From an uncultured Nitrososphaerota archaeon (lineage in GTDB: Archaea; Thermoproteota; EX4484-205; JAAOZP01), in assembly GCA_964635675.1 (NCBI GenBank), contig CAZWPT010000003.1, forward strand, positions 3,672 to 67,671: 64,000 nucleotides of DNA. The letters are read 5' to 3'. The notes below the pieces were generated by a model that was not told the DNA's origin, made no database searches, and saw nothing but the letters and a program-made list of their open reading frames with translations. Positions 2,320 to 24,107 of this stretch are shown one piece after another. The translations under genes and the position numbers were made by a program. Every line of letters begins with the position of its first letter. The stretch's first letter is position 1.

Positions 2320-3438
2320 TTGGAAGCGGGATACTACATGAGGATCGCCTTCGTTTATGACGCAGTGTATCCCTGGATTAAAGGCGGTGTAGAGAGGAGA
2401 ATATACGAGATTGGAAGGAGGCTATCCCGCCGGCATGAGGTGCACTGGTTCGGCTTAGAGTGGTGGGGCGGTGGAGAGAGGGATATTGACGGTATCCGAC
2501 TTCACGGGGTTGGAGGGGGAAGACCGCTTTACGTCAATGGGAAGCGGTCGATAAGCGAGGCCTTATACTTCGGGCTTAAGCTACTCTCAGGATTCAAGCA
2601 TGATGTCGACTTCATAGATGTTCAAGCGTTCCCGTACTTCTCCTGCTTCACCTCTAAGGCCCGCTCCATGATGGCGGGGGCACGCATGGCAGTGACGTGG
2701 CACGAGCTTTGGGGAAGCTACTGGTTTGAATACTTGGGTATTAAGGGGCTCGCGGGCTGGGCTGTTGAAAGAGCCGTCCCCAAGCTTACATCCATGCATA
2801 TTGCTGTATCAAGCGTGACGAGGAGAAGACTGGAGGCAGTTGGTGTTCAAGCCGAGGTGATCCCAAACGGAATAGACTTTGAGCATATAGCGAGAGTCAA
2901 CAGAAGTTGTGAGGAGTCTGACCTTGTTTTCGCAGGAAGGCTGGTGAAAGAGAAGAATGTTGACTTGATTATAAGAGCTGTTAGGATCCTGAGGAAAAGT
3001 GTTCCAGACGTTAAATGCGTAATAATAGGCGACGGGCCGGAGAAACAGGCTCTAGTAAGACTATCAGACCGCCTTGGAGTAGGCGGGAACATTGTGTTTA
3101 AAGGATTCCTTGATAATCACGACGATGTTATAGCTTGCATGAAGTCCTCCAAGGTTTTTGTACTCCCCTCGACCCGGGAGGGTTTTGGAATCGTTGTGTT
3201 AGAGGCGAACGCGTGCGGAATTCCTGTCGTCACGGTTAGGCACGAGAGGAACGCTGCTTGCAGCCTAGTGGAAGAGGGTTTAAATGGTTTCACATGCGCC
3301 GTTTCACCTGAGAAAATCGCGGAGAAAACTCTGGAGGCCATGTGTAGGAACATGAGGCAGGAGTGTTTTAACAATGCTTCCAAGTATGACTGGAGCAAAA
3401 TAGTAAGCCTTTACGAGAATCTTCTGGAAAGGATCTAA
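2320..3438 (+). CDS. GT4-family glycosyltransferase
   Basis: 372 aa. C-terminal EGFGIVVLEANACGIPVV (E-x7-E motif of GT-B/GT4 retaining glycosyltransferases). Confidence 0.8.
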   Translation: MEAGYYMRIAFVYDAVYPWIKGGVERRIYEIGRRLSRRHEVHWFGLEWWGGGERDIDGIRLHGVGGGRPLYVNGKRSISEALYFGLKLLSGFKHDVDFIDVQAFPYFSCFTSKARSMMAGARMAVTWHELWGSYWFEYLGIKGLAGWAVERAVPKLTSMHIAVSSVTRRRLEAVGVQAEVIPNGIDFEHIARVNRSCEESDLVFAGRLVKEKNVDLIIRAVRILRKSVPDVKCVIIGDGPEKQALVRLSDRLGVGGNIVFKGFLDNHDDVIACMKSSKVFVLPSTREGFGIVVLEANACGIPVVTVRHERNAACSLVEEGLNGFTCAVSPEKIAEKTLEAMCRNMRQECFNNASKYDWSKIVSLYENLLERI

Positions 3439-5271: not shown

Positions 5272-6084
5272 TTGAAGCCCGACTCATGCTTAAGGATGAT
5301 CGGGTTAATCCTGGCGGCTGGAAAGGGCACTAGAATGCGGCCTTATTCCAACGCGATAAACAAGGAGATGTCCCTAATCGGGGAGAGCCCCGTCATAGAG
5401 TATAACGTGAAGGCTCTTGCAGACGCCGGAATTAGAAAGGCGTTCATAGTGCTCGGAGAAGGCAAGTGGCAGATATTCGAGTACCTTAGGGACGGCTCCA
5501 GGTTTAACATTGCACTCTCCTACATCTATCAAGACCTGGGTGAGAAGGAGGAGAAGAAGGGTACGGCGAAGGCGATACAGGTTGCTGAGGAATGGGTTAA
5601 CGATGATTTCATAGTTATCTATGGCGACTCGTTTTTCTACCCGTATGATTTCCTCAGGAGCGAGATTGAGCTCCACCAGATGGAAAAAGCCGATGTCACA
5701 ATGGGGATCTACATGATGAAAGAGTATAAGGATTACGGTATTGTTCAGACGCACGGCGGGAGGGTTGTCGACATTCTGGAGAAGGCGACCGAGGAGGAGG
5801 CTGAGAAGACTAAGGTCGACGACATGTTTGCAGTCAACTCCGGCCCACTGGTTTTCACGCGTGGAGTCTTCCCCTATATTAGGCGGACTCCTGTTTCGCC
5901 AGCCGGAGAATACTGGATAACTGACACAATCAGGCTGATGATTAAAGACGGTAGGAAAGTATTGGCGTACAGGATACCCGAGGGAGTCTTCTGGAGGGAC
6001 ATTGGGAGAATGAAGCACAGAATGGAGGCTGAAGCATACCTCTTGAGCAAGCATTCCGACTACAACATGCTAAACAGGAAGTGA
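5272..6084 (+). CDS. Sugar-1-phosphate nucleotidyltransferase (glucose-1-P thymidylyl/uridylyltransferase-like)
   Basis: 270 aa. GLILAAGKGTRMRP signature. The likely true start is M at 5296 (MIGLILAAG). Confidence 0.75.
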   Translation: MKPDSCLRMIGLILAAGKGTRMRPYSNAINKEMSLIGESPVIEYNVKALADAGIRKAFIVLGEGKWQIFEYLRDGSRFNIALSYIYQDLGEKEEKKGTAKAIQVAEEWVNDDFIVIYGDSFFYPYDFLRSEIELHQMEKADVTMGIYMMKEYKDYGIVQTHGGRVVDILEKATEEEAEKTKVDDMFAVNSGPLVFTRGVFPYIRRTPVSPAGEYWITDTIRLMIKDGRKVLAYRIPEGVFWRDIGRMKHRMEAEAYLLSKHSDYNMLNRK

Positions 6085-7035
6085 ACAGCCTGAGCCCTCG
6101 ACAGCCATCCTGATAAGGCGTAGCGCGTCTTCAAGCTTAATCTCCTGTTTAAACTGGATGCCACCAATATTTGCCCTGCCTCCCGCGTTCACACCATTGT
6201 TTTTCAAGAGTTCAGCGTAAACCTTGCTGAGGTCTATGCCTCTCGCAGCTATTGTTGCGGAAACCGGTTTGCCCTTCCTTAAGCCTATGCAGACAACCAC
6301 TTTCTCACTCTTCTCCAGCTCGAACATCAACATTCTTCTAGCAGCGGCCTCAAGCTGGTCGGTAACATCATACGTGAAGTAGGTGACTACACCTGTTCTG
6401 GCCAAGGAGCTTCTGAGCTTCTCAACCCTGTTCTCCACGAGGCTCCATCTGCCTATCTCGTTTTCAACCCACTCCAGAACACTGCTCCAATCCATCTCGT
6501 AAACCATGCGCGTGAGGCTGGTTCTAACATCTTCCCTCATGCTGTTCAAGAGAAAAGCCTTATTCATCTTCACAGACAGCTCTGAAACCATGTTTCCAGA
6601 GTCTATCTCGTCAACAGCCTCGAGAATCCTGACACCGTTCTCGTTTAACTCAAGGAAGTCTTTGAAAACATTGAAAACAAGCCTTGAAACACTTCTAATC
6701 CCGCTGTTAAAAAGTATTTCCCTGGTTTTCCTAGAGCCGTTGTAAAGCGCTATTACAGGTGCTTGACCATGGTGGTCTATCAAAACGTTGCTGCCAACAT
6801 AAGTCAAGCCTTTACTTAAAGGGAGTTCTATGAGTATGCTTCTAGAGGCTTTCACAGTGTCGATCTCGCTGGGCTTAGGATATTGGATTCTTGAAATATC
6901 CGCGCCCAGAGCCTTCCCAGTTATTGAGGCGGCGAAAATACCGTCTAGATCAGGGTCGCTCAATATCATGTACTCCGGATTGTCTTCAACGAAGCGGAAG
7001 AGTATTTGCCTCCCCTCCTCGTTTTCAAAGCTCAA
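6070..7035 (-). CDS. DHH-family phosphoesterase (NrnA/GAN-like)
   Basis: 321 aa. DHH motif in VLIDHHG, with DHHA1-like GGxxxxGG near the C-terminus (AGGRANIGG). Overlaps the convergent 5272..6084 gene by 15 nt. Confidence 0.65.
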   Translation of the reverse strand: MSFENEEGRQILFRFVEDNPEYMILSDPDLDGIFAASITGKALGADISRIQYPKPSEIDTVKASRSILIELPLSKGLTYVGSNVLIDHHGQAPVIALYNGSRKTREILFNSGIRSVSRLVFNVFKDFLELNENGVRILEAVDEIDSGNMVSELSVKMNKAFLLNSMREDVRTSLTRMVYEMDWSSVLEWVENEIGRWSLVENRVEKLRSSLARTGVVTYFTYDVTDQLEAAARRMLMFELEKSEKVVVCIGLRKGKPVSATIAARGIDLSKVYAELLKNNGVNAGGRANIGGIQFKQEIKLEDALRLIRMAVEGSGCSLPV

Positions 7036-7132: not shown

Positions 7133-8035
7133 TTAAAAGATTTGAAGCATGCTTAAGAGGATAATAATTGCTCCAAATGCTAGGCAGTAGTAGGAAAACT
7201 TGTGGAAGCTATGTTTAGCAACGTACTTCCTAACCGTCCCTAGGGCAAGGTAGCCGACGACAGCGGTTACCAGAATCCCTAGGCTAATCATCCAATACTC
7301 CTGCTCGAAACTAATTTCTTGAAGCTTAACTAGGCTTCCGCCTATTATGCTCGGGATTGATAAGAGCAGGGAAAACCGGTAGGCCTCTTCTTCCCCAACC
7401 CCTCTAAGTAGACCGGTTGAAACAGTCATCCCGGTTCTGGATATTCCAGGCGTGATTGAAGCAGCCTGAGAAACCCCTATCAGAAAGGAGTCTAAAGCAC
7501 CCAGTTTCCTACTTGGTTTAGCATTCCTCGTCGAATACAGTATTAAGCCGTTGAGAAGCATTGCAACACCGGTTGCGAAAAGGCTTTGAAACAAAGATTC
7601 GAAGAAGCTTTTAAGAAAGAAGCCCGCTAAGCCAATGGGAATTGTGCCGAGAGCAATGTACACGAGCATCCTGCCCTCTTCCCCTGAGAAATCTAGCTTT
7701 AACGCTGCTCTAAGGATTGATTGTAAATCCTTTCTTAGAAACAGTATTACCCCAATGAGGGTTCCTAGATGAAGCACTATGTCGAAAGCAACGGAGACTT
7801 TTATGTTAAACAGCTCCTGCACTATTACTAGGTGCCCAGTGCTTGAGACTGGAAACCATTCTGTTAAACCTTGAACGAGGCTTAGGCAAACCGTCTCCAG
7901 AATTCCCGCCAAGCCGGTTCTTCCCTGTTTGGAAAAATCGATGGTTAAAACTGCCTCGGCGAAGATAACTAGCGTTTGAATAAACAGGTAACTAGTGATA
8001 ATAAACGTTAGCAACTGACGTTTTCTCTTATCCAC
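7133..8035 (-). CDS. uppP: Undecaprenyl (polyprenyl)-diphosphatase UppP/BacA
   Basis: 300 aa polytopic protein. LTEWFPVSSTGHL and PGISRTG motifs are characteristic of the BacA/UppP family. Confidence 0.8.
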   Translation of the reverse strand: MDKRKRQLLTFIITSYLFIQTLVIFAEAVLTIDFSKQGRTGLAGILETVCLSLVQGLTEWFPVSSTGHLVIVQELFNIKVSVAFDIVLHLGTLIGVILFLRKDLQSILRAALKLDFSGEEGRMLVYIALGTIPIGLAGFFLKSFFESLFQSLFATGVAMLLNGLILYSTRNAKPSRKLGALDSFLIGVSQAASITPGISRTGMTVSTGLLRGVGEEEAYRFSLLLSIPSIIGGSLVKLQEISFEQEYWMISLGILVTAVVGYLALGTVRKYVAKHSFHKFSYYCLAFGAIIILLSMLQIF

Positions 8036-8092: not shown

Positions 8093-11000
8093 TTAAGATT
8101 TTTCAACAAACTTTCTTGCCGATATCTCATACATCTTTCCTTCAGCATCGAAAGTTATGATGTTTTTGTTCAGCCGTATTGCTGCTATTGCGAGCGCTGA
8201 GCTTAACAGGCCGTCGTCCGAGTCTAAACATACAGCGTCTATCGTGAGGATTTCTTCAGAAAGCCTTTCGACAAGCGTATTCACGTCTCTTGATTCAACC
8301 CTCCTAACCTCGATCGTCGGAGGCCAGATGCCTTCAGACCTAACTCTCCTCCGCAATTCCCTTACCTTGCCACTTACATCCGATCTTGAATAGATGATTA
8401 AAAATTGAGGCCGGTATTTTCTAACAACTGTTGCAGCATACTCTATTGATTCACCTATTACTACAGCCACGTTAAATCTTAGCGTAGACCATTCTAGGAC
8501 GAGCTTCCTAACATGAGTTATAACTTCATGCGCATTCGACTCAAGCATAACTGCGTAAAGGGATTTCGTATGAACGTAAGCCGCATACTCTTCGCCATCC
8601 TTCTTAACCTCGATCGCAGTTAGGGCTGTAAACGGCCTATTGCCCCCCTTTCCATACCTGAAACTCACCGAATAAGAGATATTCCCGTTCTCATCCAGTT
8701 TTTCCTCGCGCGCAACATCTGAAATTACTAGCTCTAATGCTGTACTGCTTTGAGGCAATCTTTCATAAAGATAGTTAACAAACGTTTCAACCTTCTCCGA
8801 AGGAATCCTCACCGGGATTCGAACCGTCCACACTCCTTCTTTAACTACTTTTTCTTCCATTCTCCACCTTCTCAAAAGCGAGGGGGTTGCTATTTTCGCA
8901 GCCTTTAAGGCAGGGATTGTTGAAGAAACCATGGCTGTCAGAAATGCCATCATTATCAGGGAAAGCATATCTATAGGAGTAGTTTTCACGTCTATAGGTA
9001 TGATCATATTAGAGACGTCAAACACTTTGAATATAATCATGCTCAATATATAGCCAATACCGCCGCCGATGAAACCGAATACCCCTGCCTCCACTATGAA
9101 CAGGCTTGAAATATGAGTAGGGTTTAAGCCTACAGATGAAAAAATGAATATTTCATTCCTCCTTTCATAAACTAGCGTGTAGAATAGCAGCATAATGTTT
9201 AACACGGTAATGATCATTGGAATAAGAACTGTCGCGCCAAAGACCTCGACAGAACCTCCTCTGAAGTAGTAGGTTATGCCCTCTGAACTAGGCATAGTTA
9301 TGACTGAATAGTTTGCTAGCAAAGCTAATCTTCTCGAAACCTCCCTTGCCTGCGCATTGTCTTTGAATGTGCAGTAGAGCGCGGAAACGTAGCCGCCTAA
9401 TCTTTGAGCGGTGAAAGCATCCGTTATCAAGAGGTTGTCAGCGGGCACAGGCTGGGGGCCATTTTCAAAGCCCGGAAGAATATACATGGGCAGGAAATGA
9501 CTGCCATCTGGCTCTTTTATCACGTTAACAAGCCCACCGTCAAATATGCCGGCTACCTTTAGCCTTACCCCTCTGAAAACTATGGTCATGCCTATGTCCA
9601 CGTCTGCTCTGGCTGCCAAATACCTGCTTATAAGAACAGTATTACTATTGTTGAACAGGCTTTCTATTGCATGCTCCGGGTATGTGGCGCTCTTAATCAA
9701 GCTTAGAGACGGGTCTCCCTCGGAAACCCCCCTGACCCCATAGATCGGTACCTCGCTAACATAGTCTAGGGCGCCGTACGCAACAGGAGTTATCACCTTA
9801 TAGTCTATTCTCGAAACCTCTCTCTGCGCGCCTATGAAACTAAAATCTTCAAGCGTGAGGGGGCCGGAAGGCTTGATCACCATCGACACTGGAGGCTTAT
9901 CGGCTGGCCACGTTTTTGCCACCATTATAGCGTTAGTCGTTAGAGACACCCTTATTGAAGTCAACGTTGATATTGCTATAATCATTATTGTAATTGAGAC
10001 GAGAGTTAGCGTAGTCCTTAGCTTTCTCTTTTTCAAGTTTCCAATAGAGTATGAAATAGCGATCAATAAGGCGGGTATCAATGAAACTCCTCGCTCGCTC
10101 TTTATTTCAAGAAAGTAGGGAGCTAAAAATACGAGTAGAAACATGATTATAACAATATAGATTCCTGTCTGAAGCTCTAAAGTTGTAATTCTTGAAAGAC
10201 CCGGGAACACCTGGTAAGCTATAGTCATTAAAACTATGAATGTAATCGCTGTAAACATCGCGTATTGATCCTTCCTCTCTGCAATTATCGAGCCGATGGA
10301 TAAGGATAGAATCGCCACGATCACGAATACTATAATCTGGTTGGTCCGTGTTTCCCTCACAATATTTTGAATAGCATTGATTATTAATACACTGCTCATC
10401 ACGGCTTCTTGCTGATACGCCAGTATCTTAATTGGGTCAGAGGTGTTTAAAACAGCTAAACTGGATCTTTCAATCTGCTCCAACCTGTAAAGCTCCAAGC
10501 CCACGTAGAGCCCAATGTTCCTGGTTTCTTCTACATGTCTTTCAGCAGATTCAACTGTTTCATTGACGAGAGTTTGGTAAGACTTTACTTGGAGGAAAGC
10601 AGGTTGATCCAGGTAGATTTTAGCATTTTTGCTTAATCTAATCGGCTGCGTACTATTCCCTATTTCCACTACTGTTCTTCTCCCACCGACAGTGATTGAA
10701 ACCAGTATCGACAAGTTTGTTTCAGAAGGAACTATAAGGGTATTTCCAGTTATGTTTAGCAGGCCAAGTAGCGGCAGATGGCTTGAATCATAATTCAGCA
10801 TTAATTGATTAAGCCGCGTCTCATTAAGTAGAAGGACATACATTTCCTGCGTTGGAATCGTCAGGTCAAAGGGAGAGGGAACAACAGCCAGGACTTTTGC
10901 GACCGCTCCTGGACATAGGTTTATTTCTATGTTCCTGGTTTCTCTGACTGACAGTTTTCCTAGGCTTATTATTTGAGGCACATAAGTATCTTTTTCGTTT

Positions 11001-13525
11001 AGCGAGGGACCTATGATCCTTATTTCTGAGCCGGAGGGCACTGCCATCGTTGTTTCATCCCAAACCCTGGTCACCATGTATGTCTCGTTCACGAACACTA
11101 GGAACAACTGGGGTTCCCTAGGCTTCGGGTTCAACGTTATTTTAAGCATTGACGACGGTTTTACGACGAAGCGTTTAGAATTAGTGTCGATCCTAGTGCC
11201 GTTTGCTAGGAGCAGCTCCGTTGAAACCTCCAGCACATGCTCGGAGTCAACATGGTGTGGCGCCTCGAAGACACGTTTTACGGCAAGATAGGCAGGTGAT
11301 GATGAAGATGGTATTTCAACGCTTATGTTCTCACTGACTAGAGTTTTATTGGAGGTTATATCGTTCAACCTCCAGCTTAGCACTGCGTCGAAAGGCTCCT
11401 GAAACACGTCGTTCACAAGCCAGAGCGCAATCCTAACTGTTGAGCCTGGAAGAAAGAATAGGGATGTCAGATTATGCCTATAGTCCCCGTCAACCATTAT
11501 TACGGTATGCACAGGGTTGAAAGCGTTCCTAACCTCGTAGTAAGACTCTTTCTTAAAGCCGTAAGAATCTATGATTGAGCCGCTGACGAGCAGGGGGTAG
11601 TCTGTAAGCGGAAGAACATTAACACCTATAGAAATATTGTACCTAAGTATTCTAACCCTATCTATCGCATGCCTCAAAACCAGAGATTGGTACTTCTGGC
11701 TTAGCTCAATTAAGCTGGAGAGGTTCTCAGCCGCATCCCTCCAGTAGGCGTTTTGGAAATCCGGGTCAAGCCCTTCCGCCTCGAGAAGCTGAAGAACCTG
11801 CTCATAAGGCAGGGTTTGAACCTCTTCCCAGAATGGAGAGTTTAAACTGGGCAAGCCCACTGGACTAATTACGTTTGGAAAAGATTCCTTGTAATGCAGG
11901 TAGTCAACCCAGCTGCCCGTTCCCCAACCGTAGTCTACGAACCTGTCAACATAATCGTATGCCTCAACGTATGATAGAACTATGATTCCCTTATTCACCT
12001 CTTTAACCAAGACGTTCAGATCACGGTCAAGGTAGAAATTGGTTCCAGAACCATAGTATGGTGACTCCTTGTTCAGCCACGGCGGGAGGGTGTGGGGGCA
12101 GACTATTGTTATCGAGGGATAGTTGTACGTTAGCAGTAACAGTTCAACGAGCTGCATCTTCACGAGCCTAGCATAGTTTTCAGAGTAGTCTAGGGCAGGG
12201 TAAGCGCCTATCAGGGGGAAGTCCAGCTGGACGATGAAGCCTTTCAAAGAGGTTAACTCATAGAACTCTTTCGGCTCAACATGCGCGAACGACCTTAAGA
12301 AATTGACATTGGCCCCTCTCAGCAGGCTGAGCGTCTCATTCATTTTGACGCTACGACTTGTGTCGATAAGCCATTCGAGCCTAGAGAAATACGACCCGCC
12401 CCTCAGAAAAACATTCCTACCGTTTACTTTAACGTAAGGATTCTTCTGGGAAATCGAACCCTCTAAGAAACGTATTCCAAATAATGTTTCAACCGACCCG
12501 GCGTACTCATCACCATGGTGCAGACTAATGTTGAGAAGGTAAACGTTTGGAACACCAATATCCCATGGGAACCAGTATGCTGGGTCCCGGAGGGAGATGC
12601 TTAACGTTTCCCACCTTCTTTCCCCAGCAGAAAGCTGTATGCTGAACGACTGTTCTAAGCCGGTTGTGTTATTGGAGCCAAGGTCTTTTATTCTTACGGA
12701 TGCTAGAAAGCTATCGTCAACACTCCCCTTGTTCTGAAGTAGAATACGCAGGTTTAAGGAGGCAGGGTTCGAGTACTGTGCTGCATCAACTAAGACCAGG
12801 TTAATAACGGGATCCAGCGTCCCGACGAGGGTGACGCCTCCAGATATCCCGATGTAACTGTCGTGGAGGTTTGGAAGAACTTCTGAGAAAGAGTATATGC
12901 CCATCGGGTGAACCCTAGATTCATACGTTTCCTGGACTGGAGACTCTAAGTATAGGGTCAGTAAGTTGACACTGTCGCGAACAACAATTCCATCTATGTC
13001 GAAGAAGAATTGGGAAAAATAACCCACGTGCTCCCCCAGATAGAAGCCGTTCAACCAGACTTTCGCAGCAACCCAGACTCCTGAGAAAACAAGCCTCAGC
13101 CTCTGCCCCCTCATTTCACTAGGCACTGTGAATGATGTTCTCACCCATAGCGAGCTGTTTGATCTAGTTGACTTAAAAAGGAAGGGTGCTTCAACCCTGC
13201 TCCAGGAAGAATCATCATAATAAGGATCATAGTAAAGATTAATGTTTCCAGGGTCAAAAGCGTCAACCTTGTAACTCCACTTCCCAGTCAATTCATGTTT
13301 AGAGAGATAGAAGTAGTCGAAAGGCGCCAAGTATGCAGAAGCCTTGTCAACCAAATTTTCAGAGGGCTCTACGAAGAAATATCGTAAACCAGGCAGAATC
13401 AGAGCCGCTATCAAAAACGATACTGAGACTATTGTTAGAAGCGGCTCTACGATTCTCCTCGACGCCATCACCGGATTGCTTCCAATTGAAGCACGATATA
13501 AGTTTTTACTTAATGTTTTAACCAT
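8093..13525 (-). CDS. Giant membrane protein fusing a GH2-like glycosidase ectodomain, an FtsX/MacB-type permease module and a C-terminal cytoplasmic domain
   Basis: 1810 aa in a single ORF. The N-terminal signal-anchor TM is followed by a GH2 sugar-binding jelly-roll (WSRVEAPFLF...RLVFSGVWVAAKVWLNGFYLGEHVGYF...DIDGIV). Next come an Ig-like domain and a TIM-barrel-like region (VKVNGRNVFLRGGSYF...). Further beta-rich domains are dense in N-x-S/T sequons. At aa 1064-1547 there are about 8 TMs with two FtsX signatures (LKKRKLRTTLTLVSITI; LLFYTLVYERRNEIFIFSSVGLNPTHISSLFIVEAGVFGFIGGG) and a MacB-PCD-like extracytoplasmic loop. A 263-aa cytoplasmic tail of unknown function follows. Confidence 0.7.
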   Translation of the reverse strand: MVKTLSKNLYRASIGSNPVMASRRIVEPLLTIVSVSFLIAALILPGLRYFFVEPSENLVDKASAYLAPFDYFYLSKHELTGKWSYKVDAFDPGNINLYYDPYYDDSSWSRVEAPFLFKSTRSNSSLWVRTSFTVPSEMRGQRLRLVFSGVWVAAKVWLNGFYLGEHVGYFSQFFFDIDGIVVRDSVNLLTLYLESPVQETYESRVHPMGIYSFSEVLPNLHDSYIGISGGVTLVGTLDPVINLVLVDAAQYSNPASLNLRILLQNKGSVDDSFLASVRIKDLGSNNTTGLEQSFSIQLSAGERRWETLSISLRDPAYWFPWDIGVPNVYLLNISLHHGDEYAGSVETLFGIRFLEGSISQKNPYVKVNGRNVFLRGGSYFSRLEWLIDTSRSVKMNETLSLLRGANVNFLRSFAHVEPKEFYELTSLKGFIVQLDFPLIGAYPALDYSENYARLVKMQLVELLLLTYNYPSITIVCPHTLPPWLNKESPYYGSGTNFYLDRDLNVLVKEVNKGIIVLSYVEAYDYVDRFVDYGWGTGSWVDYLHYKESFPNVISPVGLPSLNSPFWEEVQTLPYEQVLQLLEAEGLDPDFQNAYWRDAAENLSSLIELSQKYQSLVLRHAIDRVRILRYNISIGVNVLPLTDYPLLVSGSIIDSYGFKKESYYEVRNAFNPVHTVIMVDGDYRHNLTSLFFLPGSTVRIALWLVNDVFQEPFDAVLSWRLNDITSNKTLVSENISVEIPSSSSPAYLAVKRVFEAPHHVDSEHVLEVSTELLLANGTRIDTNSKRFVVKPSSMLKITLNPKPREPQLFLVFVNETYMVTRVWDETTMAVPSGSEIRIIGPSLNEKDTYVPQIISLGKLSVRETRNIEINLCPGAVAKVLAVVPSPFDLTIPTQEMYVLLLNETRLNQLMLNYDSSHLPLLGLLNITGNTLIVPSETNLSILVSITVGGRRTVVEIGNSTQPIRLSKNAKIYLDQPAFLQVKSYQTLVNETVESAERHVEETRNIGLYVGLELYRLEQIERSSLAVLNTSDPIKILAYQQEAVMSSVLIINAIQNIVRETRTNQIIVFVIVAILSLSIGSIIAERKDQYAMFTAITFIVLMTIAYQVFPGLSRITTLELQTGIYIVIIMFLLVFLAPYFLEIKSERGVSLIPALLIAISYSIGNLKKRKLRTTLTLVSITIMIIAISTLTSIRVSLTTNAIMVAKTWPADKPPVSMVIKPSGPLTLEDFSFIGAQREVSRIDYKVITPVAYGALDYVSEVPIYGVRGVSEGDPSLSLIKSATYPEHAIESLFNNSNTVLISRYLAARADVDIGMTIVFRGVRLKVAGIFDGGLVNVIKEPDGSHFLPMYILPGFENGPQPVPADNLLITDAFTAQRLGGYVSALYCTFKDNAQAREVSRRLALLANYSVITMPSSEGITYYFRGGSVEVFGATVLIPMIITVLNIMLLFYTLVYERRNEIFIFSSVGLNPTHISSLFIVEAGVFGFIGGGIGYILSMIIFKVFDVSNMIIPIDVKTTPIDMLSLIMMAFLTAMVSSTIPALKAAKIATPSLLRRWRMEEKVVKEGVWTVRIPVRIPSEKVETFVNYLYERLPQSSTALELVISDVAREEKLDENGNISYSVSFRYGKGGNRPFTALTAIEVKKDGEEYAAYVHTKSLYAVMLESNAHEVITHVRKLVLEWSTLRFNVAVVIGESIEYAATVVRKYRPQFLIIYSRSDVSGKVRELRRRVRSEGIWPPTIEVRRVESRDVNTLVERLSEEILTIDAVCLDSDDGLLSSALAIAAIRLNKNIITFDAEGKMYEISARKFVEKS

Positions 13526-13539
13526 GAGGCGAAGATAGA

Positions 13540-13549
13540 TTTATAAAAA
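13540..13549. promoter_or_regulatory. Archaeal TATA box (TTTATAAAAA) in the 49-bp divergent intergenic region
   Basis: AT-rich box 26 nt upstream of ATG 13575 (+ gene) and 15 nt from the minus-strand start at 13525. This suggests leaderless or very short-leader transcripts and a shared bidirectional control region. Confidence 0.5.
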
Positions 13550-13574
13550 GGCTGGGTTTCGAGATAGGTGAGAA

Positions 13575-15911
13575 ATGCCTGTGAAAGCACCCAGCCGGAT
13601 TATAGAAACATTTAAAAAACACTATTACATGCTATCTCTGCTTCTGCTCTTCCTATACGCATTGCTTTCTGTGAAGACAATTTTTCTAGAAGGCGTGATC
13701 CCGGGCTGGGACAATCCTGTGCACTACGTGAACTCCTATCTCACAGCGCTCCACATGTTTCCCAAGCTGGATATTCTAGGCTGGGACCCTTTCAACCAGT
13801 TCGGCTGGGTCTTCAACCTATACTACAACTCGGGCATGAGCATCTTCGTCGCGTCCATCCACAGCCTTTTCCTAGGGCGTATGGATCCTTTAATGGCTTA
13901 CAAGATTGCGTTTTTCCTAGCGTATTTCCTACTGGCCCCCGCCACATTCATGTTCGTCCACGCTTTAACAGAGGATAAAATCGCACCCGTAGTCGCCTCA
14001 CTGCTTTCAATAACAACCTTCACCGAAGAATCAGCATGGTTTGACGCTGGTTTAAAGCAAATGTACTACATAGGCATGTGGCCAGAGAGACTGGGCTTAG
14101 TCTTTCTGTTTTTCAGCATAGCCCTCTTGGCCTACTCCTTTAAATCTAAAGCGCTTTCAAAAACCCTGCTTTTCACTGGACTGGGCTCCCTGTTTTTCAC
14201 CATGGCTGTCCTAACCCATGTAATGATGGGGATTTCAGCGGCTTTAATGGCATTATTACTATGGCTATTTGTCTCCGCCAGAATATTGACCGACCTTTGT
14301 TCCGTTGACAAGCTTAAGCCGATCTTGAAAACCGAGGCCGTTGTCTTGGCGAAGTTTGCATCCATAGGCTTGCTTTCTATAGGGATGGCTGCTTTCTGGA
14401 TGGTCCCGTTGTTTCAAACAATAGACGCGTATCATAGTTTTCCAGCCGTCACATGGGCCACTGGACCATATATTTTTGGAGAAATATTTGCCAGTATACC
14501 GTGGTACTTGCTGGTTTTTTATTGTCTAGGCGCTTTCACGCCCGTTTACGCGAGAAAGAAAGTCTCCTATTCATCCTTAGCCGCCTCTGCAGTCATCCTT
14601 ATATTGCAGTTCCTTAACCTGGTTAACCTGTACGATGGCAACATCGGGCTGAGGCTTATTTTCGCATTCACGGCATCACTGGTTTTACTGGTTTCCTCCA
14701 AGGATCTCTATGTGCCGTTCCTGCTTGCATCCATATCCATCCTCGGTTTTCTGGCAACCGGCCCGGATACGTATCTTGTCTACTTCGGCCCGTTTAGGCT
14801 AGACCTACTTAGCCTAATACCTTTCGCAAGGAGCTTCGGCTACGCTAAGTTTAACGCTCCAGTCAGAATTCTAATACTCAGCTTAGCGGCCCTTGGTTTC
14901 TCGAAGATTTTGAGCAAGCTCTACGCGCTCTCCAAAACAACAAGGTTTCCAGCAGTTTTCTCAATAGTCTCCGGATTACTAGCGTTCTTGATTCTCAACT
15001 CTTCGCTTAGCGCTCAACTGCAGAACACTGATCTCGTCTACCCGTTTTCCAAGGAGAAGGTTTTCAAGCTAACCTCAGACTACCCCGGCTTCGAAAAGGT
15101 TGACGAGCTTATAGGCTGGGTGGAGAACAATGTTCCCAAAGACACTTACATACTGTTTCAGGATACTTTGGATTTCGGCGACAGCGAGGACTTTCAGACA
15201 TCGCACTATGTCTATATTGCTTCAATAAGGCTAAAAAGACCTATTATCGGCGGTTGTTTTGGGACCCGCTACATAACTAATACCTATGCCCTTACCGAGG
15301 GAGGGTATCTTCTAAGTTTCTCCGTTGAAAAGCTGATTAAGAACAATCTGATTCAGCGGCTGATGGATGAGCTTGGAATCGGCTACATCGCTATCCACGA
15401 TTCGAGACTAATAAATTTCTTAAACTCCTCCGCCGATTTTTGCCTTGAGTACTATAATGAGCTGTACGCAGTTTTTCGGAAAACTAATTTCTCAAAGATC
15501 GTTTTCATCCAGGGAGAGGGGACAGTTGAATCAGTAGATTTCACTATAAATAGAATTGAAGTCACGGTATCCAACGTGTCTGGAAATACTTCATATCTGA
15601 TAGTTAGGCAGGTGAACTTTCCAGGCTTCACCGCTGAGGCAGATGGGGAAATTATCCCGATAGACACGTACTATCCGAAGCTGCCAAACGTAATAACGGG
15701 TTGGCATGGAATCCAGCCAGTATTCAACTGGAGGATACCGTTCATTAGGGTGAAAATACCAGCCGGGTCTAATAGGGTAACGCTAAGGTTCAGTATGCAT
15801 ACTGTGGGAAGCGATGTATCAAAAATAGCCTGGGCAGTGTTTCTCTGTCTTTTGATCTCCGGCATAGCCCTGCCGATAGTGAGGAAGCTACGTGGAAAAT
15901 GGCGAAAGTAA
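13575..15911 (+). CDS. Polytopic membrane protein, putative GT-C-type glycosyltransferase (polyprenyl-phospho-sugar dependent)
   Basis: 778 aa. About 13 predicted TM helices in the N-terminal 480 aa with aromatic/Asp-containing extracytoplasmic loops (GWDNPVHY, GWDPFNQFGW). A roughly 300-aa C-terminal soluble domain ends in a TM anchor. The 3' end overlaps the UbiA-like gene by 13 nt. Confidence 0.45.
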   Translation: MPVKAPSRIIETFKKHYYMLSLLLLFLYALLSVKTIFLEGVIPGWDNPVHYVNSYLTALHMFPKLDILGWDPFNQFGWVFNLYYNSGMSIFVASIHSLFLGRMDPLMAYKIAFFLAYFLLAPATFMFVHALTEDKIAPVVASLLSITTFTEESAWFDAGLKQMYYIGMWPERLGLVFLFFSIALLAYSFKSKALSKTLLFTGLGSLFFTMAVLTHVMMGISAALMALLLWLFVSARILTDLCSVDKLKPILKTEAVVLAKFASIGLLSIGMAAFWMVPLFQTIDAYHSFPAVTWATGPYIFGEIFASIPWYLLVFYCLGAFTPVYARKKVSYSSLAASAVILILQFLNLVNLYDGNIGLRLIFAFTASLVLLVSSKDLYVPFLLASISILGFLATGPDTYLVYFGPFRLDLLSLIPFARSFGYAKFNAPVRILILSLAALGFSKILSKLYALSKTTRFPAVFSIVSGLLAFLILNSSLSAQLQNTDLVYPFSKEKVFKLTSDYPGFEKVDELIGWVENNVPKDTYILFQDTLDFGDSEDFQTSHYVYIASIRLKRPIIGGCFGTRYITNTYALTEGGYLLSFSVEKLIKNNLIQRLMDELGIGYIAIHDSRLINFLNSSADFCLEYYNELYAVFRKTNFSKIVFIQGEGTVESVDFTINRIEVTVSNVSGNTSYLIVRQVNFPGFTAEADGEIIPIDTYYPKLPNVITGWHGIQPVFNWRIPFIRVKIPAGSNRVTLRFSMHTVGSDVSKIAWAVFLCLLISGIALPIVRKLRGKWRK

Positions 15912-16759
15912 AGGATTTTTTAGTGGAAGCAAGGATTCTAGACTGGTATAAGAATCTACTTATACTGCTTGCACCATTCTTCGGCGGAAAGCTTCTACTC
16001 CCAGTCTATTATCCTAGCCTTTTATTGGGATTTCTAGCCCTGTCAGCGACCTCCAGTGCTTGCTACGTGATTAATGATATTAAAGATGCTGCTCAGGATG
16101 CTTATCATCCTAGGAAAAAAAATAGGCCTGTGGCTAGTGGGAAAATGAGTAGGGCTTCAGCGTTAATCTTCTCGATTATCCTACTGGGTTTTTCCCTCTT
16201 CGTCTCATACCGGGTGAGCATCCCCTTTCTAGTACTGTGCATCTCCTTATTCCTAAACTCGACCACTTACACTTTTTTCCTAAGGGATATAGCATGGTTA
16301 GACCTGCTTAGCATATCTCTTAATTACATCATTAGGTCGCTAGCAGGAGGCGAAATAGTTAATGTGTATATTTCACCATGGCTGTTGATTAGTGTCTTCT
16401 ATGTTTCAATGCTCTTTGCATTATCGAAAAGAAGGGAGGAATTAACCGCTTTAAATAAACCTGAACATCATAGAAAGTCTTTCAAGCATTATGACGTGGC
16501 TCTTATAGATCAAGCGATCACCGTCTTCTCAACCCTAATAATAATCTCTTATTCTCTCTATACTTTTCACTCGCCGTATGCAGATGGTCTCCTGCCTTTC
16601 ACGATTCCGATAATAACGCTAATAGTATTGCAGTTCATTTCGATTTCGAAAAAAACCGTGGAGGCTGGAATTATAAGAAGACTCCTGTCCAGCAGGATCA
16701 TATTTATAAGCCTCCTTATTTGGCTTGCAATAATGTTTTACTTAATATATTTAACATGA
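15899..16759 (+). CDS. UbiA-family prenyl-phosphate phosphoribosyltransferase-like (DPPR synthase-like)
   Basis: 286 aa, multi-TM. YVINDIKDAAQDAYHPRKKNRPVASG matches the NDxxDxxxDxxHPxKxxRPxAxG first Asp-rich motif of decaprenyl-phosphate 5-phosphoribosyltransferase (Rv3806c family). Confidence 0.7.
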   Translation: MAKVKDFLVEARILDWYKNLLILLAPFFGGKLLLPVYYPSLLLGFLALSATSSACYVINDIKDAAQDAYHPRKKNRPVASGKMSRASALIFSIILLGFSLFVSYRVSIPFLVLCISLFLNSTTYTFFLRDIAWLDLLSISLNYIIRSLAGGEIVNVYISPWLLISVFYVSMLFALSKRREELTALNKPEHHRKSFKHYDVALIDQAITVFSTLIIISYSLYTFHSPYADGLLPFTIPIITLIVLQFISISKKTVEAGIIRRLLSSRIIFISLLIWLAIMFYLIYLT

Positions 16760-16836
16760 GTCTTTCCAAATAATTGCTTGAAACAAGATTTTAGAGAAAT
16801 GAAGATTTATTAGTAGAGCGAGAGGAGTTTATCAGC

Positions 16837-17967
16837 ATGGTCCATATTTATGAACGAGACTGGGCGAGGGATGATATTCTTAAACGAGTTGGCAGCATGG
16901 AGCAGATTGCTGGGGTGAAAATAGCGGAATTCTCCAACGGTTTTGAACGCGGTGTAAAAGTTGCCGTAGTCAGAAACGGGGACCTAAATTTTCTAGTGGC
17001 AATAGACCGAGGTATGGATATAGTGAATGCAGAGTATAAAGGAGTACCGTTAAGCTGGATTAGCCCTACTGGGATAGTTGCACCCGGTTTCTACGAGCCG
17101 GAAGGGCTCGGGTGGCTCCGCGGCTTCCCAGGCGGATTAATGACGACATGTGGCCTAACCTATATGGGTGCACCTACTTTCGACGATGGCGAGAGCCTGG
17201 GGCTGCATGGACGCATATCCTACTCGCCGGCTAATCTGCTGAATGCCGATTGCTGCTGGGAGGGGGAAAAATACAAGATTGTTTTAGAAGGGGAGGCTAG
17301 AGAATCCAAGGTGTTTGAGCCAAACATCGTGTTGAGACGGCGAATAACAACGTTCCTAGGGGAGAGGCACATAGCAATACGTGACCTTGTGACGAACCGC
17401 GGGTGGAAAACACAGCCTCTGATGATACTATACCACATCAACATAGGTTTCCCCCTGCTGGATGAGGGTGCCAGGTTCTTGTCGACAACCGGCTGCCTCG
17501 CCCCGAGAGACCGGGATGCCTTAGAAGGTGTTGAAGACTTTGCAAGTGTCCATGGGCCAAGGCCCGGCTATAGGGAAAAAGTATACTTTCACAGCATGCT
17601 GAGTGATAGTGATGGGAACGCCTACGCTGCCATATTGAACCACAGGCTTCTCGGAGGCTTGGGAGTATACGTGAAGTATAACACTAGAGAGCTTCCAAGA
17701 TTCGTTCAGTGGAAAATGCTTGGCGAGGGGACATACGTTATGGGCATGGAGCCTGCGAACAGCCTCGTCTTGGGAAGAGACAAGGAGCGAGACTTTAAGA
17801 CACTGCAACATATTAAGCCTCAGGAAACAAGAGAATTCAACATTGAGATAGGTGTTTTAGTTGGAAGCGAACTAGCTGTTTTTGAAGAAAGGATAAACAG
17901 TGTGACAGGCATGAGGAGGCCTCGGGTGTTTGAAAACCTGGAAAGCTTCATCGAACTCTGCAGCTAA
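16837..17967 (+). CDS. Hypothetical protein, possibly galactose-mutarotase-like (DUF4432-like)
   Basis: 376 aa soluble protein. Assignment is by weak family resemblance only. Confidence 0.35.
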   Translation: MVHIYERDWARDDILKRVGSMEQIAGVKIAEFSNGFERGVKVAVVRNGDLNFLVAIDRGMDIVNAEYKGVPLSWISPTGIVAPGFYEPEGLGWLRGFPGGLMTTCGLTYMGAPTFDDGESLGLHGRISYSPANLLNADCCWEGEKYKIVLEGEARESKVFEPNIVLRRRITTFLGERHIAIRDLVTNRGWKTQPLMILYHINIGFPLLDEGARFLSTTGCLAPRDRDALEGVEDFASVHGPRPGYREKVYFHSMLSDSDGNAYAAILNHRLLGGLGVYVKYNTRELPRFVQWKMLGEGTYVMGMEPANSLVLGRDKERDFKTLQHIKPQETREFNIEIGVLVGSELAVFEERINSVTGMRRPRVFENLESFIELCS

Positions 17968-22979: not shown

Positions 22980-24107
22980 ATGAACTCTTGGGAAAGAGTC
23001 GTAAAAGCTATGCAGCTTTCAGCACCCGATAGGGTTCCAATCTACGAGATGCACATCCCTCCTAAAATATCTTCAGTAATATTGAATAAGAACGTGAATG
23101 AAATCATGTATGCTAATGCCGAGGCCTTCTATAACCTGATAGTGTCAAAGGCAGAGATTAATCTAGATAAGTTGAATGCGCAAGTGGCGGAGGAACAGTT
23201 AACCCTTTACAAGAAGCTTGGGTTAGATTGGATAAGAGTTGGCGGAGCCTACACCGGCATTCCAAAGAATGTTAAAAAGCTTGAAGACAACGTGTGGCAG
23301 ATAAATGGCGGACGCTACAAATGGACAGGAGATACAGCTTGGTTTCTGGATGAGCCTAAAGAATACGATCCCGATGAGGTGATAAGGGCTTGCAAGAAGA
23401 GCAGTATAAGGGTGAACACCGGTGTTTTCGACGTGTTGAAGCGGATTTCCAAAAAAGTTAAGGGCGAGGTCTTTCTATCCTTTGACGCTGACGGAACTTG
23501 GGGGCCAATAGTTTCAAATCCAAATCTGCTTAAGCATGTTCTCGTCTGGGTGTATAGAAGACCTGATGCTGTTGAAGCTCTGATCAACTATCATACTGAA
23601 ATTGCAATAGAATACGGGAGGTATGCAATCGATGAGGGTGCTGATGCGATTCAGCTCTGCGTTGACTACGGTAATAAAAATGGTCCTTGGCTTTCTCCGC
23701 CGATGTTCAGAAGATTCGTGAAACCGGCCTTAGAGAGGCATGTGAATGAATTCAGAAGAAAAGGGGCTTTTGTAGTGGTTCATTCAGACGGTTATATCAT
23801 GCCGCTGCTGGGCGACATGGTGGATGCAGGGATTAATGCCTATCAGGGTATAGATGTAATAGCAGGCATGAACCTCAAGGAAGTCAAGGAGAAGTATGGG
23901 GATAGGATTTGCCTGGTTGGGAATGTCGACCCGAGGGTAATCGAGTACGGTACGAAGTCTGATGTGGAGAGAGAGGTTGAAAGGTGTCTCAGGGAGGGCG
24001 GAAAAGAGGGGTATATACTGTCAGCATCTGCCAACATTTCTATTAACACGAATGCTGAGAACTTCATGCATATGGTGGAGTATGCTAAGAAAATGTCGTA
24101 TGCTTAG
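22980..24107 (+). CDS. URO-D/MtaA-superfamily protein, paralog 1 (uroporphyrinogen decarboxylase-like / methyltransferase-like fold)
   Basis: 375 aa. N-terminal MNSWERVVKAMQLSAPDRVPIYE. Central ...AFVVVHSDGYIMP... and C-terminal GNVDPRVIEYG...GGKEGYILSASANI resemble the URO-D/MtaA family. About 65% identical to the 31485..32612 product. Confidence 0.65.
   Translation: MNSWERVVKAMQLSAPDRVPIYEMHIPPKISSVILNKNVNEIMYANAEAFYNLIVSKAEINLDKLNAQVAEEQLTLYKKLGLDWIRVGGAYTGIPKNVKKLEDNVWQINGGRYKWTGDTAWFLDEPKEYDPDEVIRACKKSSIRVNTGVFDVLKRISKKVKGEVFLSFDADGTWGPIVSNPNLLKHVLVWVYRRPDAVEALINYHTEIAIEYGRYAIDEGADAIQLCVDYGNKNGPWLSPPMFRRFVKPALERHVNEFRRKGAFVVVHSDGYIMPLLGDMVDAGINAYQGIDVIAGMNLKEVKEKYGDRICLVGNVDPRVIEYGTKSDVEREVERCLREGGKEGYILSASANISINTNAENFMHMVEYAKKMSYA

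Follow-up and report, generated by a model that had tools for sequence, protein, structure and literature searches.

The window, a stretch of 64,000 nucleotides, comes from an uncultured hot-spring archaeon of the Brockarchaeota and contains two overlapping genes on its forward strand. The first (13575..15911, + strand) encodes a GT-C-fold glycosyltransferase of 778 aa, and the second (15899..16759, + strand) a predicted UbiA-superfamily polyprenyl-phosphate 5-phosphoribosyltransferase of the PPPRS/DPPRS type, 286 aa long. The two reading frames share 13 nt (ATGGCGAAAGTAA), an overlap through which, as read from the sequence, the UbiA gene is translationally coupled to the GT-C gene. An earlier sequence-only reading had proposed this overlapping pair, a giant GH2-FtsX gene running divergently beside it and an archaeal host. 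The pair is indeed found, the giant gene is borne out by ORF positions and Pfam, and the nearest relatives are Brockarchaeota/Thermoproteota MAG proteins of 86-96% identity.

The divergent gene (8093..13468, − strand) encodes a giant membrane protein of 1791 aa when counted from a conserved methionine, residue 20 of a mechanical ORF that reaches 13525. In loci L007 and L013-L015 stop codons fall between the mechanical start and this methionine, which makes 13468 the most likely start of the gene and leaves 106 bp of intergenic sequence. The 49 bp gap with a single shared TATA box described earlier was wrong on both counts, as each divergent gene has a separate conserved TATA box. These are the two intergenic elements conserved at the nucleotide level across diverged loci. 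That of the GT-C/UbiA bicistron, TTTATAAA (13540..13547, + strand), precedes the ATG at 13575 by 31 nt and is strictly kept, despite diverged flanks, in every Brockarchaeota locus retaining the divergent giant gene; L012 and L018, loci without the giant gene, have TTTTTATAAG in its place, ~50-60 nt upstream. The giant gene has a TATA-like box, ATATAA (TTATAT on the minus strand; 13496..13501, − strand), 30 nt upstream of its probable start, and the element AAAACTTATAT is conserved in nucleotide sequence even where stop codons close the frame.

From its N-terminus, the giant protein consists of a TM helix, a GH2-like domain, a long outer region, a MacB-PCD and FtsX portion with four TM helices, and a conserved cytoplasmic C-terminal domain. 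Pfam recovers GH2_N, GH2, MacB_PCD and FtsX, and the PDB sequence matches are GH2 beta-mannosidases and beta-galactosidases. The GH2 motifs HNE and EFG of the Thermofilaceae proteins read CPHTL and SPVG here and, judged by these motifs, the domain has lost both catalytic glutamates. The protein carries 15.7 N-x-S/T sequons per 1000 residues, compared with 0-3 per 1000 in cytosolic proteins. Near the giant gene lies a UppP/BacA polyprenyl-diphosphate phosphatase gene (7133..8035, − strand; Pfam BacA, E 2e-65), where it had been placed before, but the suggested tie to a common pathway is loose, the gene having its own TATA box (TTTTATAA, 21-28 nt upstream of the UppP start). It is syntenic in Brockarchaeota loci, and UppP could possibly belong to the system by supplying the polyprenyl-phosphate acceptor.

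The UbiA-type protein

The 286-aa protein has a UbiA fold with ~9 TM helices; many of its homologues are at present mislabelled '4-hydroxybenzoate polyprenyltransferase'. The DPPR-synthase signature previously ascribed to it, NDIKDAAQDAYHPRKKNRPVASG, is present at residues 59-81, and the protein groups with DPPR synthase, apart from the DGGGP, menaquinone and heme O prenyltransferases. DPPRS models score 173, 142 and 106 bits, and the HAD-fused UbiA model NF006088, which from its architecture we take to be of the HAD-PPPRS fusion type, scores 131 bits. All remaining UbiA subfamily models stay at or below 44 bits (16-44 bits for the prenyltransferase subfamilies). The best score, 173 bits with NF008977, is below the NCBIfam equivalog cut-off of 234 and four times the 44 bits of the next-best UbiA subfamily. 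The sole PDB sequence match is Rv3806c.

Two motifs are conserved in Rv3806c as well as throughout 20 archaeal homologues: NDxxDxxxD (N59, D60, D63 and D67), the first Asp-rich motif, and KRxxE (K177, R178 and E181) in the second cytoplasmic loop region. In the Rv3806c structure, PRPP is bound by R22, K28, Y70, N73, D77, K87, R90, Q135, Y138, K143 and Y157 (PMC10994848). Ten of these eleven positions are kept here (R12, K18, Y56, N59, D63, K73, R76, Y124, R129 and Y143), the one change being Q135 to S121, and most are also kept in 19 archaeal homologues. The residues that hold the 5'-phosphate (K18, Y56 and Y143 here) are said to be unconserved in true prenyltransferases. We conclude that the 286-aa protein very probably makes lipid-linked ribose from PRPP.

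The GT-C-fold protein

The 778-aa protein folds as a GT-C enzyme, with a multi-span TM core and a long first outer loop. The AF2 model agrees with the topology put forward earlier: it shows 13 TM helices, places the extracytoplasmic domain at ~485-743, and adds a 14th helix, a C-terminal anchor at 744-777, that was absent from that description; the protein thus has 14 TM helices in an N-in, C-in orientation. Asp46 follows directly after TM1, within a W-D-N-P-V-H motif of outer loop 1. Among 110 superfamily representatives, 108 have Asp at the equivalent position, and Asp46 is the putative catalytic residue; His50 and His215 are also conserved.

The protein had been thought Emb/Aft-like or AglB-like, and it is neither. 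It does not belong to the Emb/Aft sequence families (Arabinose_trans and related models), and no Pfam family reaches threshold on the protein itself, with no match to YfhO, PTPS_related (PF10131) or DUF6541 (PF20176). Two of 26 close homologues match DUF6541 weakly (E 0.005). A profile search with the family gathered 533 representatives and, among 35 distant relatives, 13 match PF10131, seven PF20176 and two YfhO. The family aligns with the YfhO/PTPS_related/DUF6541 group in hhalign at E 1e-75 over 644 columns, and a DHPxH-type motif in outer loop 1 is common to both. By profile comparison, the 778-aa protein is a remote relative of this group.

The nearest solved folds are STT3/AglB, enzymes that use diphosphate-linked oligosaccharides. 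An AglB/STT3-type oligosaccharyltransferase paralogue encoded beside an ordinary prenyltransferase (DGGGP synthase, MenA, heme O synthase or UbiA) is nevertheless a highly improbable description of the pair, and one largely refuted: the 778-aa protein has no WWDYG-type motif (no W[WYF]D[YFW]G match), no match to Pfam STT3 even at E up to 1 and a null hhalign result against an archaeal STT3, while the subfamily scores and the retained PRPP-specific residues of its partner speak for DPPRS. Fold and genetic context suggest instead that the GT-C protein probably uses lipid-linked ribose outside the cell.

Conservation of the pair and its neighbours

The overlapping GT-C/UbiA pair is found in every complete Brockarchaeota locus whose orthologue is 60% identical or more (L003-L010, L012-L016 and L018) and in a distant lineage, L019, with an overlap of either 13 nt or 4 nt; judged by this conservation, the pairing is more than chance. 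Two further bin copies, L011 (76% identical) and the paralogue L023 (29% identical), are without an adjacent UbiA gene. Of eight archaeal lineage contexts examined, six have a DPPRS-like UbiA gene within ~1 kb of a GT-C gene. This closeness (~1 kb) is seen in four further lineages with differing GT-C families: Methanolobus (PMT), Woesearchaeota (PMT_2/GT22, with a 4-nt overlap), Nanoarchaeia (PMT_2/GT87) and L034. Repeated adjacency or overlap with at least three GT-C families would be expected of a donor/transferase pair. The same recurrence argues against a functionally unrelated GT-C and a UbiA product that is no sugar donor but itself the end product, for example a phosphoribosyl- or ribosyl-phospho-lipid derived from polyprenyl phosphate or archaetidic acid. 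The sequence does not reveal which lipid is the acceptor, and archaea have other lipid phosphate monoesters. Moreover, methanogens, Asgard and DPANN archaea have a conserved cassette of UbiA, PHP phosphoesterase, LPG_synthase_TM and DUF362 genes, often with a PMT-type GT-C, that includes a domain familiar from MprF-type modification of lipid head groups. Even so, we consider this end-product role quite improbable.

The most constant neighbour of the GT-C family is the giant FtsX fusion, not UbiA. A GH2-FtsX giant partners the GT-C protein in Brockarchaeota, L019, L034 and Thermofilaceae, with the divergent arrangement kept in Brockarchaeota, L019 and Thermofilaceae, and paralogues of the GT-C protein are paired with M28-FtsX giants. 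Neither these paralogues nor the Thermofilaceae orthologues (35-37% identical) have an adjacent UbiA gene, and a related genome, L043, has retained the UbiA gene and lost the GT-C gene, so the two are not obligate partners. These loci, together with the STT3/AglB fold matches, would fit a GT-C protein that works mainly with the giant FtsX protein on another donor, such as a dolichyl-P-hexose or a diphosphate-linked glycan, with UbiA as a lineage-specific add-on serving other transferases or another product. We regard this as rather unlikely. The coupled, overlapping genes are kept in Brockarchaeota, the link recurs in L019, L034 and unrelated archaea, and no GT2 lipid-sugar synthase of the Dol-P-Man/Glc type lies near the pair within the window. 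In Thermofilaceae, furthermore, a PRPP synthetase gene adjoins the module in two different arrangements.

A proposed route for lipid-linked pentofuranose

On this evidence, and on the AF2 model, we think it fairly probable that the gene pair is one transcription unit whose products make and use the donor of a lipid-linked pentofuranose glycosylation pathway. The two checks that could have overturned the earlier proposal came out in its favour: the UbiA protein groups with DPPRS, and the fold of the 778-aa protein is of the GT-C type. Polyprenyl-phospho-pentose glycosylation, as proposed earlier, thus stands as the best reading. In the first step, which is strongly supported, the UbiA enzyme would move 5-phosphoribose from PRPP to a polyprenyl phosphate, presumably dolichyl phosphate in archaea, at the cytoplasmic face, yielding polyprenyl-P-ribofuranose-5-phosphate. 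Loss of the 5-phosphate and flipping of the lipid-linked ribofuranose across the membrane to its outer side would follow, steps for which no enzyme was recognised in the window: the full Pfam scan of its 64 kb found no PAP2, HAD or PHP phosphatase gene for the ribose-5-phosphate step and no flippase gene of the MATE or GtrA/SMR type. Elsewhere among archaea the gene after UbiA belongs to the PHP family (L019, Methanolobus, Thorarchaeota and Methanomicrobiales), and its product and the LPG_synthase_TM protein are likely to be the phosphatase and flippase; the window contains no homologue of this PHP gene. A weak and speculative candidate for the phosphatase is a DHH/DHHA1-family phosphoesterase of 321 aa (6070..7035, − strand; Pfam DHHA1 E 1.7e-5, just below cut-off), syntenic in Brockarchaeota, with visible DPDLDG and DHH motifs and a weak match (E 0.006) to the archaeal PAP phosphatase 8a8k. 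In the third step, the GT-C protein, whose fold is seen in the AF2 model, would transfer the pentofuranose to an extracytoplasmic acceptor, with Asp46 as the likely catalytic base, His50 and His215 as likely ligands of the donor phosphate, and the conserved C-terminal outer domain probably holding the acceptor. That acceptor may be the sequon-rich outer part of the giant pseudo-GH2 FtsX protein, or a glycan bound by it.

The analogy with the mycobacterial DPA/arabinan system, drawn in the sequence-only reading, is not supported. The M. tuberculosis pathway comprises the DPPRS Rv3806c, the phosphatase Rv3807c, DprE1/DprE2 and the Emb/Aft GT-C arabinosyltransferases (PMC10994848). No DprE1/DprE2-like epimerase gene is present in the Pfam-scanned window, which makes ribofuranose a likelier sugar than arabinofuranose. 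The window likewise has no PAP2 gene, the GT-C protein falls outside the Emb/Aft families, the lipid is presumably of the dolichol type and not decaprenol, and there is no sign of an arabinan polymer. It is improbable that epimerisation here turns lipid-linked ribose into arabinofuranose, which an Emb/Aft-like enzyme then polymerises.

A better analogue is the experimentally proven three-component system for pentofuranose (ribofuranose) side chains of Citrobacter youngae O1/O2, made up of the PPPRS-PRP ORF15, the MATE flippase ORF14 and the GT-C ORF12, which is GT136 (Kelly et al. 2024, PMC11127046). Both loci combine a GT-C gene with a gene for a UbiA-type phosphoribosyltransferase bearing NDxxDxxxD and KRxxE, both GT-C proteins have an extra beta-rich outer C-terminal domain, and both follow a logic, predicted here from the genes, that runs from PRPP through lipid-linked ribofuranose to extracytoplasmic transfer. 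The present locus differs in its archaeal host, in having no fused HAD phosphatase or MATE flippase, and in its constant partner, a giant FtsX-anchored GH2-like protein in place of an O-antigen cluster. Its GT-C has 14 TM helices and belongs to a putatively different sequence family, one related to YfhO/PTPS_related/DUF6541. In Pseudomonas aeruginosa, the GT-C enzyme TfpW is encoded next to its pilin acceptor gene. As far as the cited account covers pilin arabinosylation, a PPPRS homologue supplies lipid-linked pentofuranose to this GT-C, which modifies a specific surface protein, and the system has DprE1/E2 homologues and a small pilin acceptor (PMC11127046), whereas the neighbour here is a ~1800-aa membrane protein. 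The YfhO-family GT-C enzymes of Firmicutes, to which the 778-aa family is remotely homologous through its profile relatives, glycosylate LTA and WTA (PMC5836110) or, as PgtC2/PgfM, O-glycosylate proteins; their donors are polyprenyl-monophosphate monosaccharides, and some are encoded beside protein acceptors (PMC12041528). Unlike these, the archaeal enzyme reaches no Pfam threshold and would be served by a PRPP-dependent UbiA protein in place of a GT2 donor synthase (CsbB/GtrB).

Several observations weigh against the pentofuranose reading: the sub-cut-off UbiA score, the Gln-to-Ser change, the lack of a phosphatase, flippase or epimerase gene in the window, the UbiA-less Thermofilaceae and M28-FtsX paralogue loci, L043 and the STT3/AglB-like fold matches. 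More tentatively still, and as an idea less likely than not, we suggest that archaea have an unrecognised PRPP-derived pathway for lipid-linked pentofuranose. In Brockarchaeota and related Thermoproteota it would be wired to a dedicated, uncharacterised GT-C family that has a giant MacB/FtsX protein as its constant partner (with an outer domain that is GH2-like, and here catalytically dead, or M28-like), pentofuranosylating that protein or its bound envelope glycan. The cassette in methanogens, Asgard and DPANN archaea would, if this is right, mean that the pathway is old and occurs widely among archaea.

Archaeal surface glycosylation is known to draw on nucleotide sugars, dolichyl-phosphate hexoses and AglB, and the searchable literature yielded no report of archaea deriving a lipid-linked pentofuranose donor from PRPP. 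The type of pathway is already familiar from bacteria; its occurrence in archaea is entirely a prediction and, going by that literature, would be new. Practical value would be modest, possibly thermostable enzymes for lipid-linked furanose donors, and better annotation, given how many homologues carry the wrong label. If true, the prediction offers a cheap and concrete assay (PRPP and polyprenyl phosphate with E. coli membranes) for enzymes of uncultured thermophiles. It would also tell what a family of 780-aa membrane proteins annotated as 'hypothetical' does, together with their YfhO/PTPS_related/DUF6541 relatives, provide a first clue to the role of the giant hydrolase-FtsX fusions of Thermoproteota, and extend the pentofuranose logic of mycobacteria and enterobacteria to the third domain of life.

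UbiA-family protein and its membrane-protein partner

The two ORFs of the gene pair lie on the forward strand and overlap by 13 nt, with 13575–15911 encoding a 778-aa membrane protein and 15899–16759 a 286-aa UbiA-family protein. Upstream, on the opposite strand, a mechanical ORF (8093–13525, 1810 aa) encodes a giant protein with GH2 N-terminal domains, a MacB periplasmic core domain and FtsX, and further along that same strand lies a BacA/UppP gene (7133–8035). The closest relatives of both proteins of the pair (86–96% identical) come from Brockarchaeota/Thermoproteota hot-spring MAGs, a kinship at the sequence level that identifies the host as an uncultured TACK archaeon.

The motif quoted for the UbiA protein in the sequence-only reading, NDIKDAAQDAYHPRKKNRPVASG, is found in the 286-aa protein. 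UbiA is the sole family seen by Pfam. Among NCBIfam models, three for decaprenyl-phosphate phosphoribosyltransferase score 173, 142 and 106 bits, and the HAD-fused UbiA model NF006088, which from its architecture we take to represent a HAD-PPPRS fusion type, scores 131 bits. Models of true prenyltransferases (UbiA, MenA/MqnP, heme O synthase, DGGGP synthase, chlorophyll synthase and EboC) score 16–44 bits. The best score of 173 bits does not reach the curated equivalog cut-off of 234, and on this basis the protein is classed as a predicted divergent relative of the polyprenyl-phosphate 5-phosphoribosyltransferases (DPPRS), not as a certified equivalog.

In a PDB sequence search the only solved structure matched is that of Rv3806c, the Mycobacterium tuberculosis DPPRS (E 7e-25). 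The paper describing this structure names the residues that hold PRPP, of which those binding the phosphoribose are not conserved in prenyltransferases (PMC10994848). When Rv3806c is aligned with the 286-aa protein and 19 archaeal homologues, its residues R22, K28, Y70, N73 and D77 correspond to R12, K18, Y56, N59 and D63, and K87, R90, Y138, K143 and Y157 to K73, R76, Y124, R129 and Y143. Among the PRPP residues only Q135 is changed, to S121, and the KRxxE motif is also retained. A grouping among DGGGP, menaquinone or heme O synthesis enzymes, which would speak for an ordinary prenyltransferase, is not seen; that identity is ruled out by the HMM scores and the retained residues, both of which favour DPPRS, and the DPPRS-type assignment therefore stands. 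Some archaeal homologues are already auto-named 'decaprenyl-phosphate phosphoribosyltransferase', so the presence of this enzyme class in archaea is no surprise to the databases.

Comparison of reading frames places the start of the giant gene at a conserved Met at 13468, and the ORF reaching 13525 is over-extended. The seemingly coding KNLY stretch (AAAACTTATAT) is a conserved non-coding TATA element (13496–13501), as stop codons occur there in homologous loci. The 106-bp spacer between the two divergent genes contains a separate conserved TATA box for each of them, and this comparative start-codon analysis replaces the single shared TATA box proposed initially.

Fold and affinities of the 778-aa protein

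Direct sequence searches of Pfam, NCBIfam and PDB returned no named family for the 778-aa protein, and its assignment came solely via fold and profile methods. A confident AF2 model from a 26-homologue alignment (pLDDT 88.2, pTM 0.91) contains thirteen TM helices and a final anchor helix (744–777), with a long first outer loop (38–104) and a mixed alpha/beta outer domain (~485–743). Both termini are positively charged, consistent with an N-in, C-in topology, and the outer domain has 15.4 N-x-S/T sequons per 1000 residues compared with 0–3 per 1000 in cytosolic proteins. The model, with which Foldseek is concordant, confirms the GT-C fold that had been predicted for this protein. An identity as an oligosaccharyltransferase or AglB paralogue was rejected, the WWDYG-type motif being absent. 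Pfam STT3 gives no match, whatever the threshold, and hhalign comparisons of the 778-aa family with single STT3 and PMT sequences of other archaeal loci were null or insignificant, the comparison with an archaeal STT3 being null.

A profile search with the family against 1.8 billion representatives recovered 533 relatives. Pfam recognises PTPS_related (PF10131) in 13 of 35 distant relatives, DUF6541 in seven and YfhO in two, and a cluster look-up of distant relatives found almost nothing named. The alignments of the 778-aa family and of its wider relatives align with each other across 644 columns (E 1e-75), the C-terminal domain included. In a superfamily alignment of 118 representatives, the position of Asp46, immediately following TM1, is occupied by Asp in 108/110, and His50 (88/110), His215 (94/110), Gly77 and Gly167 are also conserved. 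The profile relatives, the alignment match and the conserved residues place the protein within the YfhO-like GT-C group, as a putative new and divergent branch. Those members of the group that have been characterised transfer sugars from polyprenyl-monophosphate donors to teichoic acids or to membrane-protein segments rich in Ser/Thr (PMC5836110; PMC12041528).

Gene neighbourhoods across archaea

All complete Brockarchaeota loci whose orthologue is at least 60% identical contain the overlapping GT-C/UbiA pair; the two genes share 13 or 4 nt, and protein identity falls to as low as 60%. The homologous archaeal locus L019 retains the pair with a GT-C that is only 36% identical, and there the UbiA gene is followed by a PHP-family phosphoesterase gene; in another, L034, UbiA directly follows the giant gene and the GT-C gene is divergent. 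The neighbourhoods of five more distant archaeal UbiA homologues were also looked up. In Methanolobus (L032/L033, 5220–10535) the order is PMT-type GT-C, UbiA, PHP and LPG_synthase_TM. In Woesearchaeota (L035, 5721–8980) the UbiA gene shares 4 nt with that of a PMT_2/GT22-type GT-C, and STT3 and GT2 genes belong to the same cluster; in Nanoarchaeia a PMT_2/GT87-type GT-C lies ~650 bp from UbiA with one intervening gene. In Thorarchaeota (L041, 4879–8696) and Methanomicrobiales (L042, 6001–9917) UbiA occurs with PHP, LPG_synthase_TM and DUF362, and annotated GT-C genes are absent within 6 kb of it; hhalign of the wider GT-C profile gave no match to the 608-aa protein encoded near the Thorarchaeota UbiA gene. 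Thus a GT-C lies within ~1 kb of the UbiA gene in six of the eight lineage contexts examined, drawn from at least three different GT-C families, a proximity which by our own estimate, rather than a computed statistic, is far above chance because there are few GT-C genes per genome.

Several observations count against an obligate link. GT-C orthologues of Thermofilaceae have no adjacent UbiA, and the same is true of GT-C paralogues beside giants with M28 and FtsX domains. L043 (GCA_038884355.1), a locus syntenic with 272–24107 of the window, keeps UbiA although the GT-C gene is wholly gone and the giant gene mostly gone. At 7906–9921 of L043 a 220-aa FtsX remnant adjoins the 306-aa UbiA gene, and the downstream Lhr helicase gene is fragmented too. 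A search with the L019 UbiA protein gave no match labelled Thermofilaceae among the 120 matches listed (of 542). In the Thermofilaceae loci a PRPP synthetase gene neighbours the GT-C/giant module, and two distinct arrangements occur (L001, 13043–13942; L038, 14753–15643; L037, 3569–4474 and 12849–13811). This hints at a link to PRPP chemistry where UbiA is not adjacent, although inherited synteny would explain it just as well. L037 additionally contains a small Pribosyltran gene and a Nuc_deoxyrib_tr gene.

The most constant partner of the GT-C family is a giant FtsX-domain protein. In Brockarchaeota, L019, L034 and Thermofilaceae this partner is a GH2-FtsX giant encoded divergently from the GT-C, and paralogous GT-Cs (~30% identical) adjoin a Peptidase_M28-MacB_PCD-FtsX giant of ~1500 aa, together with DUF6785 and a protein of 650 aa. 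Loci with this second module are L040 (148–11540), L023, L025, L011, L034 (8994–13448) and L037 (19763 to its end). The GT-C family appears to be dedicated to giant FtsX-anchored hydrolase-like proteins.

The GH2 part of the giant is a real GH2 homologue, nearest to beta-mannosidases and beta-galactosidases. Alignment to 5n6u shows CPHTL and SPVG in the Brockarchaeota giants, including that of the window, where Thermofilaceae have HNE and EFG, which we take to be the acid/base and nucleophile motifs of GH2 enzymes. Both catalytic glutamates are consequently lost in Brockarchaeota (~11860–12110, giant ORF residues ~475–560), and with these replacements the domain is probably a non-catalytic, sugar-binding (pseudo-glycosidase or lectin-like) module. 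The outer part of the giant has 15.7 sequons per 1000 residues. That the GT-C modifies the giant protein, or a glycan bound by it, is a tentative suggestion which we consider rather unlikely to hold. The C-terminal ~265 aa of the giant (8096–8890) form a conserved cytoplasmic domain with invariant RGGxRPF and DSDDGxLS motifs and no Pfam match; it lacks a Walker motif, which leaves the FtsX/MacB-like module without a fused ATPase.

A proposed archaeal lipid-linked sugar pathway

A Pfam scan of every sizeable ORF in the 64-kb window found no DprE1/DprE2-like gene, so the transferred sugar is more likely to be ribofuranose than arabinofuranose, and the analogy first drawn with the mycobacterial DPA/arabinan system is not borne out. 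The same scan of the window found no PAP2, HAD or PHP phosphatase, no MATE, GtrA or LPG_synthase_TM protein and no AglB; the genes for the phosphatase and flippase must therefore lie outside the window, or these proteins belong to types that the scan does not recognise. A DHH-family protein (6070–7035) with intact DHH motifs and a weak match to an archaeal PAP phosphatase is, like UppP, syntenic in Brockarchaeota, and a role for either as the 5-phosphatase is speculation resting on position. Downstream of the pair, a DUF4432 protein (16837–17967) resembles aldose-1-epimerases (3ty1, a hypothetical aldose 1-epimerase, E 4e-40). Its gene is syntenic downstream of UbiA in Brockarchaeota and has its own TATA-like element (~16804–16812); its use as a pathway epimerase is likewise speculative, and we exclude it from the system.

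Just past the DHH and UppP genes lie genes for a GT4 glycosyltransferase (2320–3438), a TrmB-family sugar regulator (3926–5173) and a sugar-1-phosphate nucleotidyltransferase (5272–6084). These genes keep the same order in L043 and in Brockarchaeota loci, which points to a glycan-related neighbourhood of wider extent. The window also contains two GH38 alpha-mannosidases (39018–42080, 50601–53531), a cytosolic GH2 (55991–58768), a raffinose-synthase-like protein (29228–31351), sugar isomerase and kinase genes, and six URO-D-family paralogues (22980–24107, 27984–29138, 31485–32612, 37867–38973, 42150–43235, 58812–60326). The region is dense in genes of carbohydrate metabolism and, in view of what URO-D/MtaA-like enzymes do, possibly also of methyl-transfer metabolism. 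Overlapping HEPN (43383–43850) and nucleotidyltransferase (43834–44175) genes form a typical HEPN/MNT toxin-antitoxin pair.

A three-component system in which PPPRS acts with a phosphatase, a flippase and a GT-C is proven in bacteria, in a study that does not cover archaea (PMC11127046). The archaeal contexts of UbiA, PHP, LPG_synthase_TM and GT-C genes follow the same logic. Homology links the PHP protein of L019 to that of Methanolobus (E 5e-28), and both would be obvious candidates for the 5-phosphate phosphatase, with LPG_synthase_TM a candidate flippase. DPPRS-like UbiA genes of archaea recurrently sit in a cassette with genes for a PHP phosphoesterase, the membrane protein LPG_synthase_TM and DUF362, in many cases accompanied by a PMT-type GT-C. 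This cassette has the appearance of a full archaeal equivalent of the bacterial pentofuranose system, so far undescribed. Searches of the literature found nothing relevant on archaeal pentofuranose pathways, on DUF362 with UbiA or on GH2-FtsX fusions; the pathway, its GT-C and partners are thus undescribed in the searchable literature, and the enzyme class itself is already named in databases.

The core of the original proposal, a DPPRS-like enzyme whose gene is co-transcribed with that of a GT-C, has survived the checks on both the UbiA affinity and the GT-C fold. On fold and residue conservation, and beyond these on inference from gene context, the pair is most aptly seen as a predicted archaeal version of the system for lipid-linked pentofuranose glycosylation, built with a new YfhO-like GT-C branch and tied to giant FtsX-anchored surface proteins.
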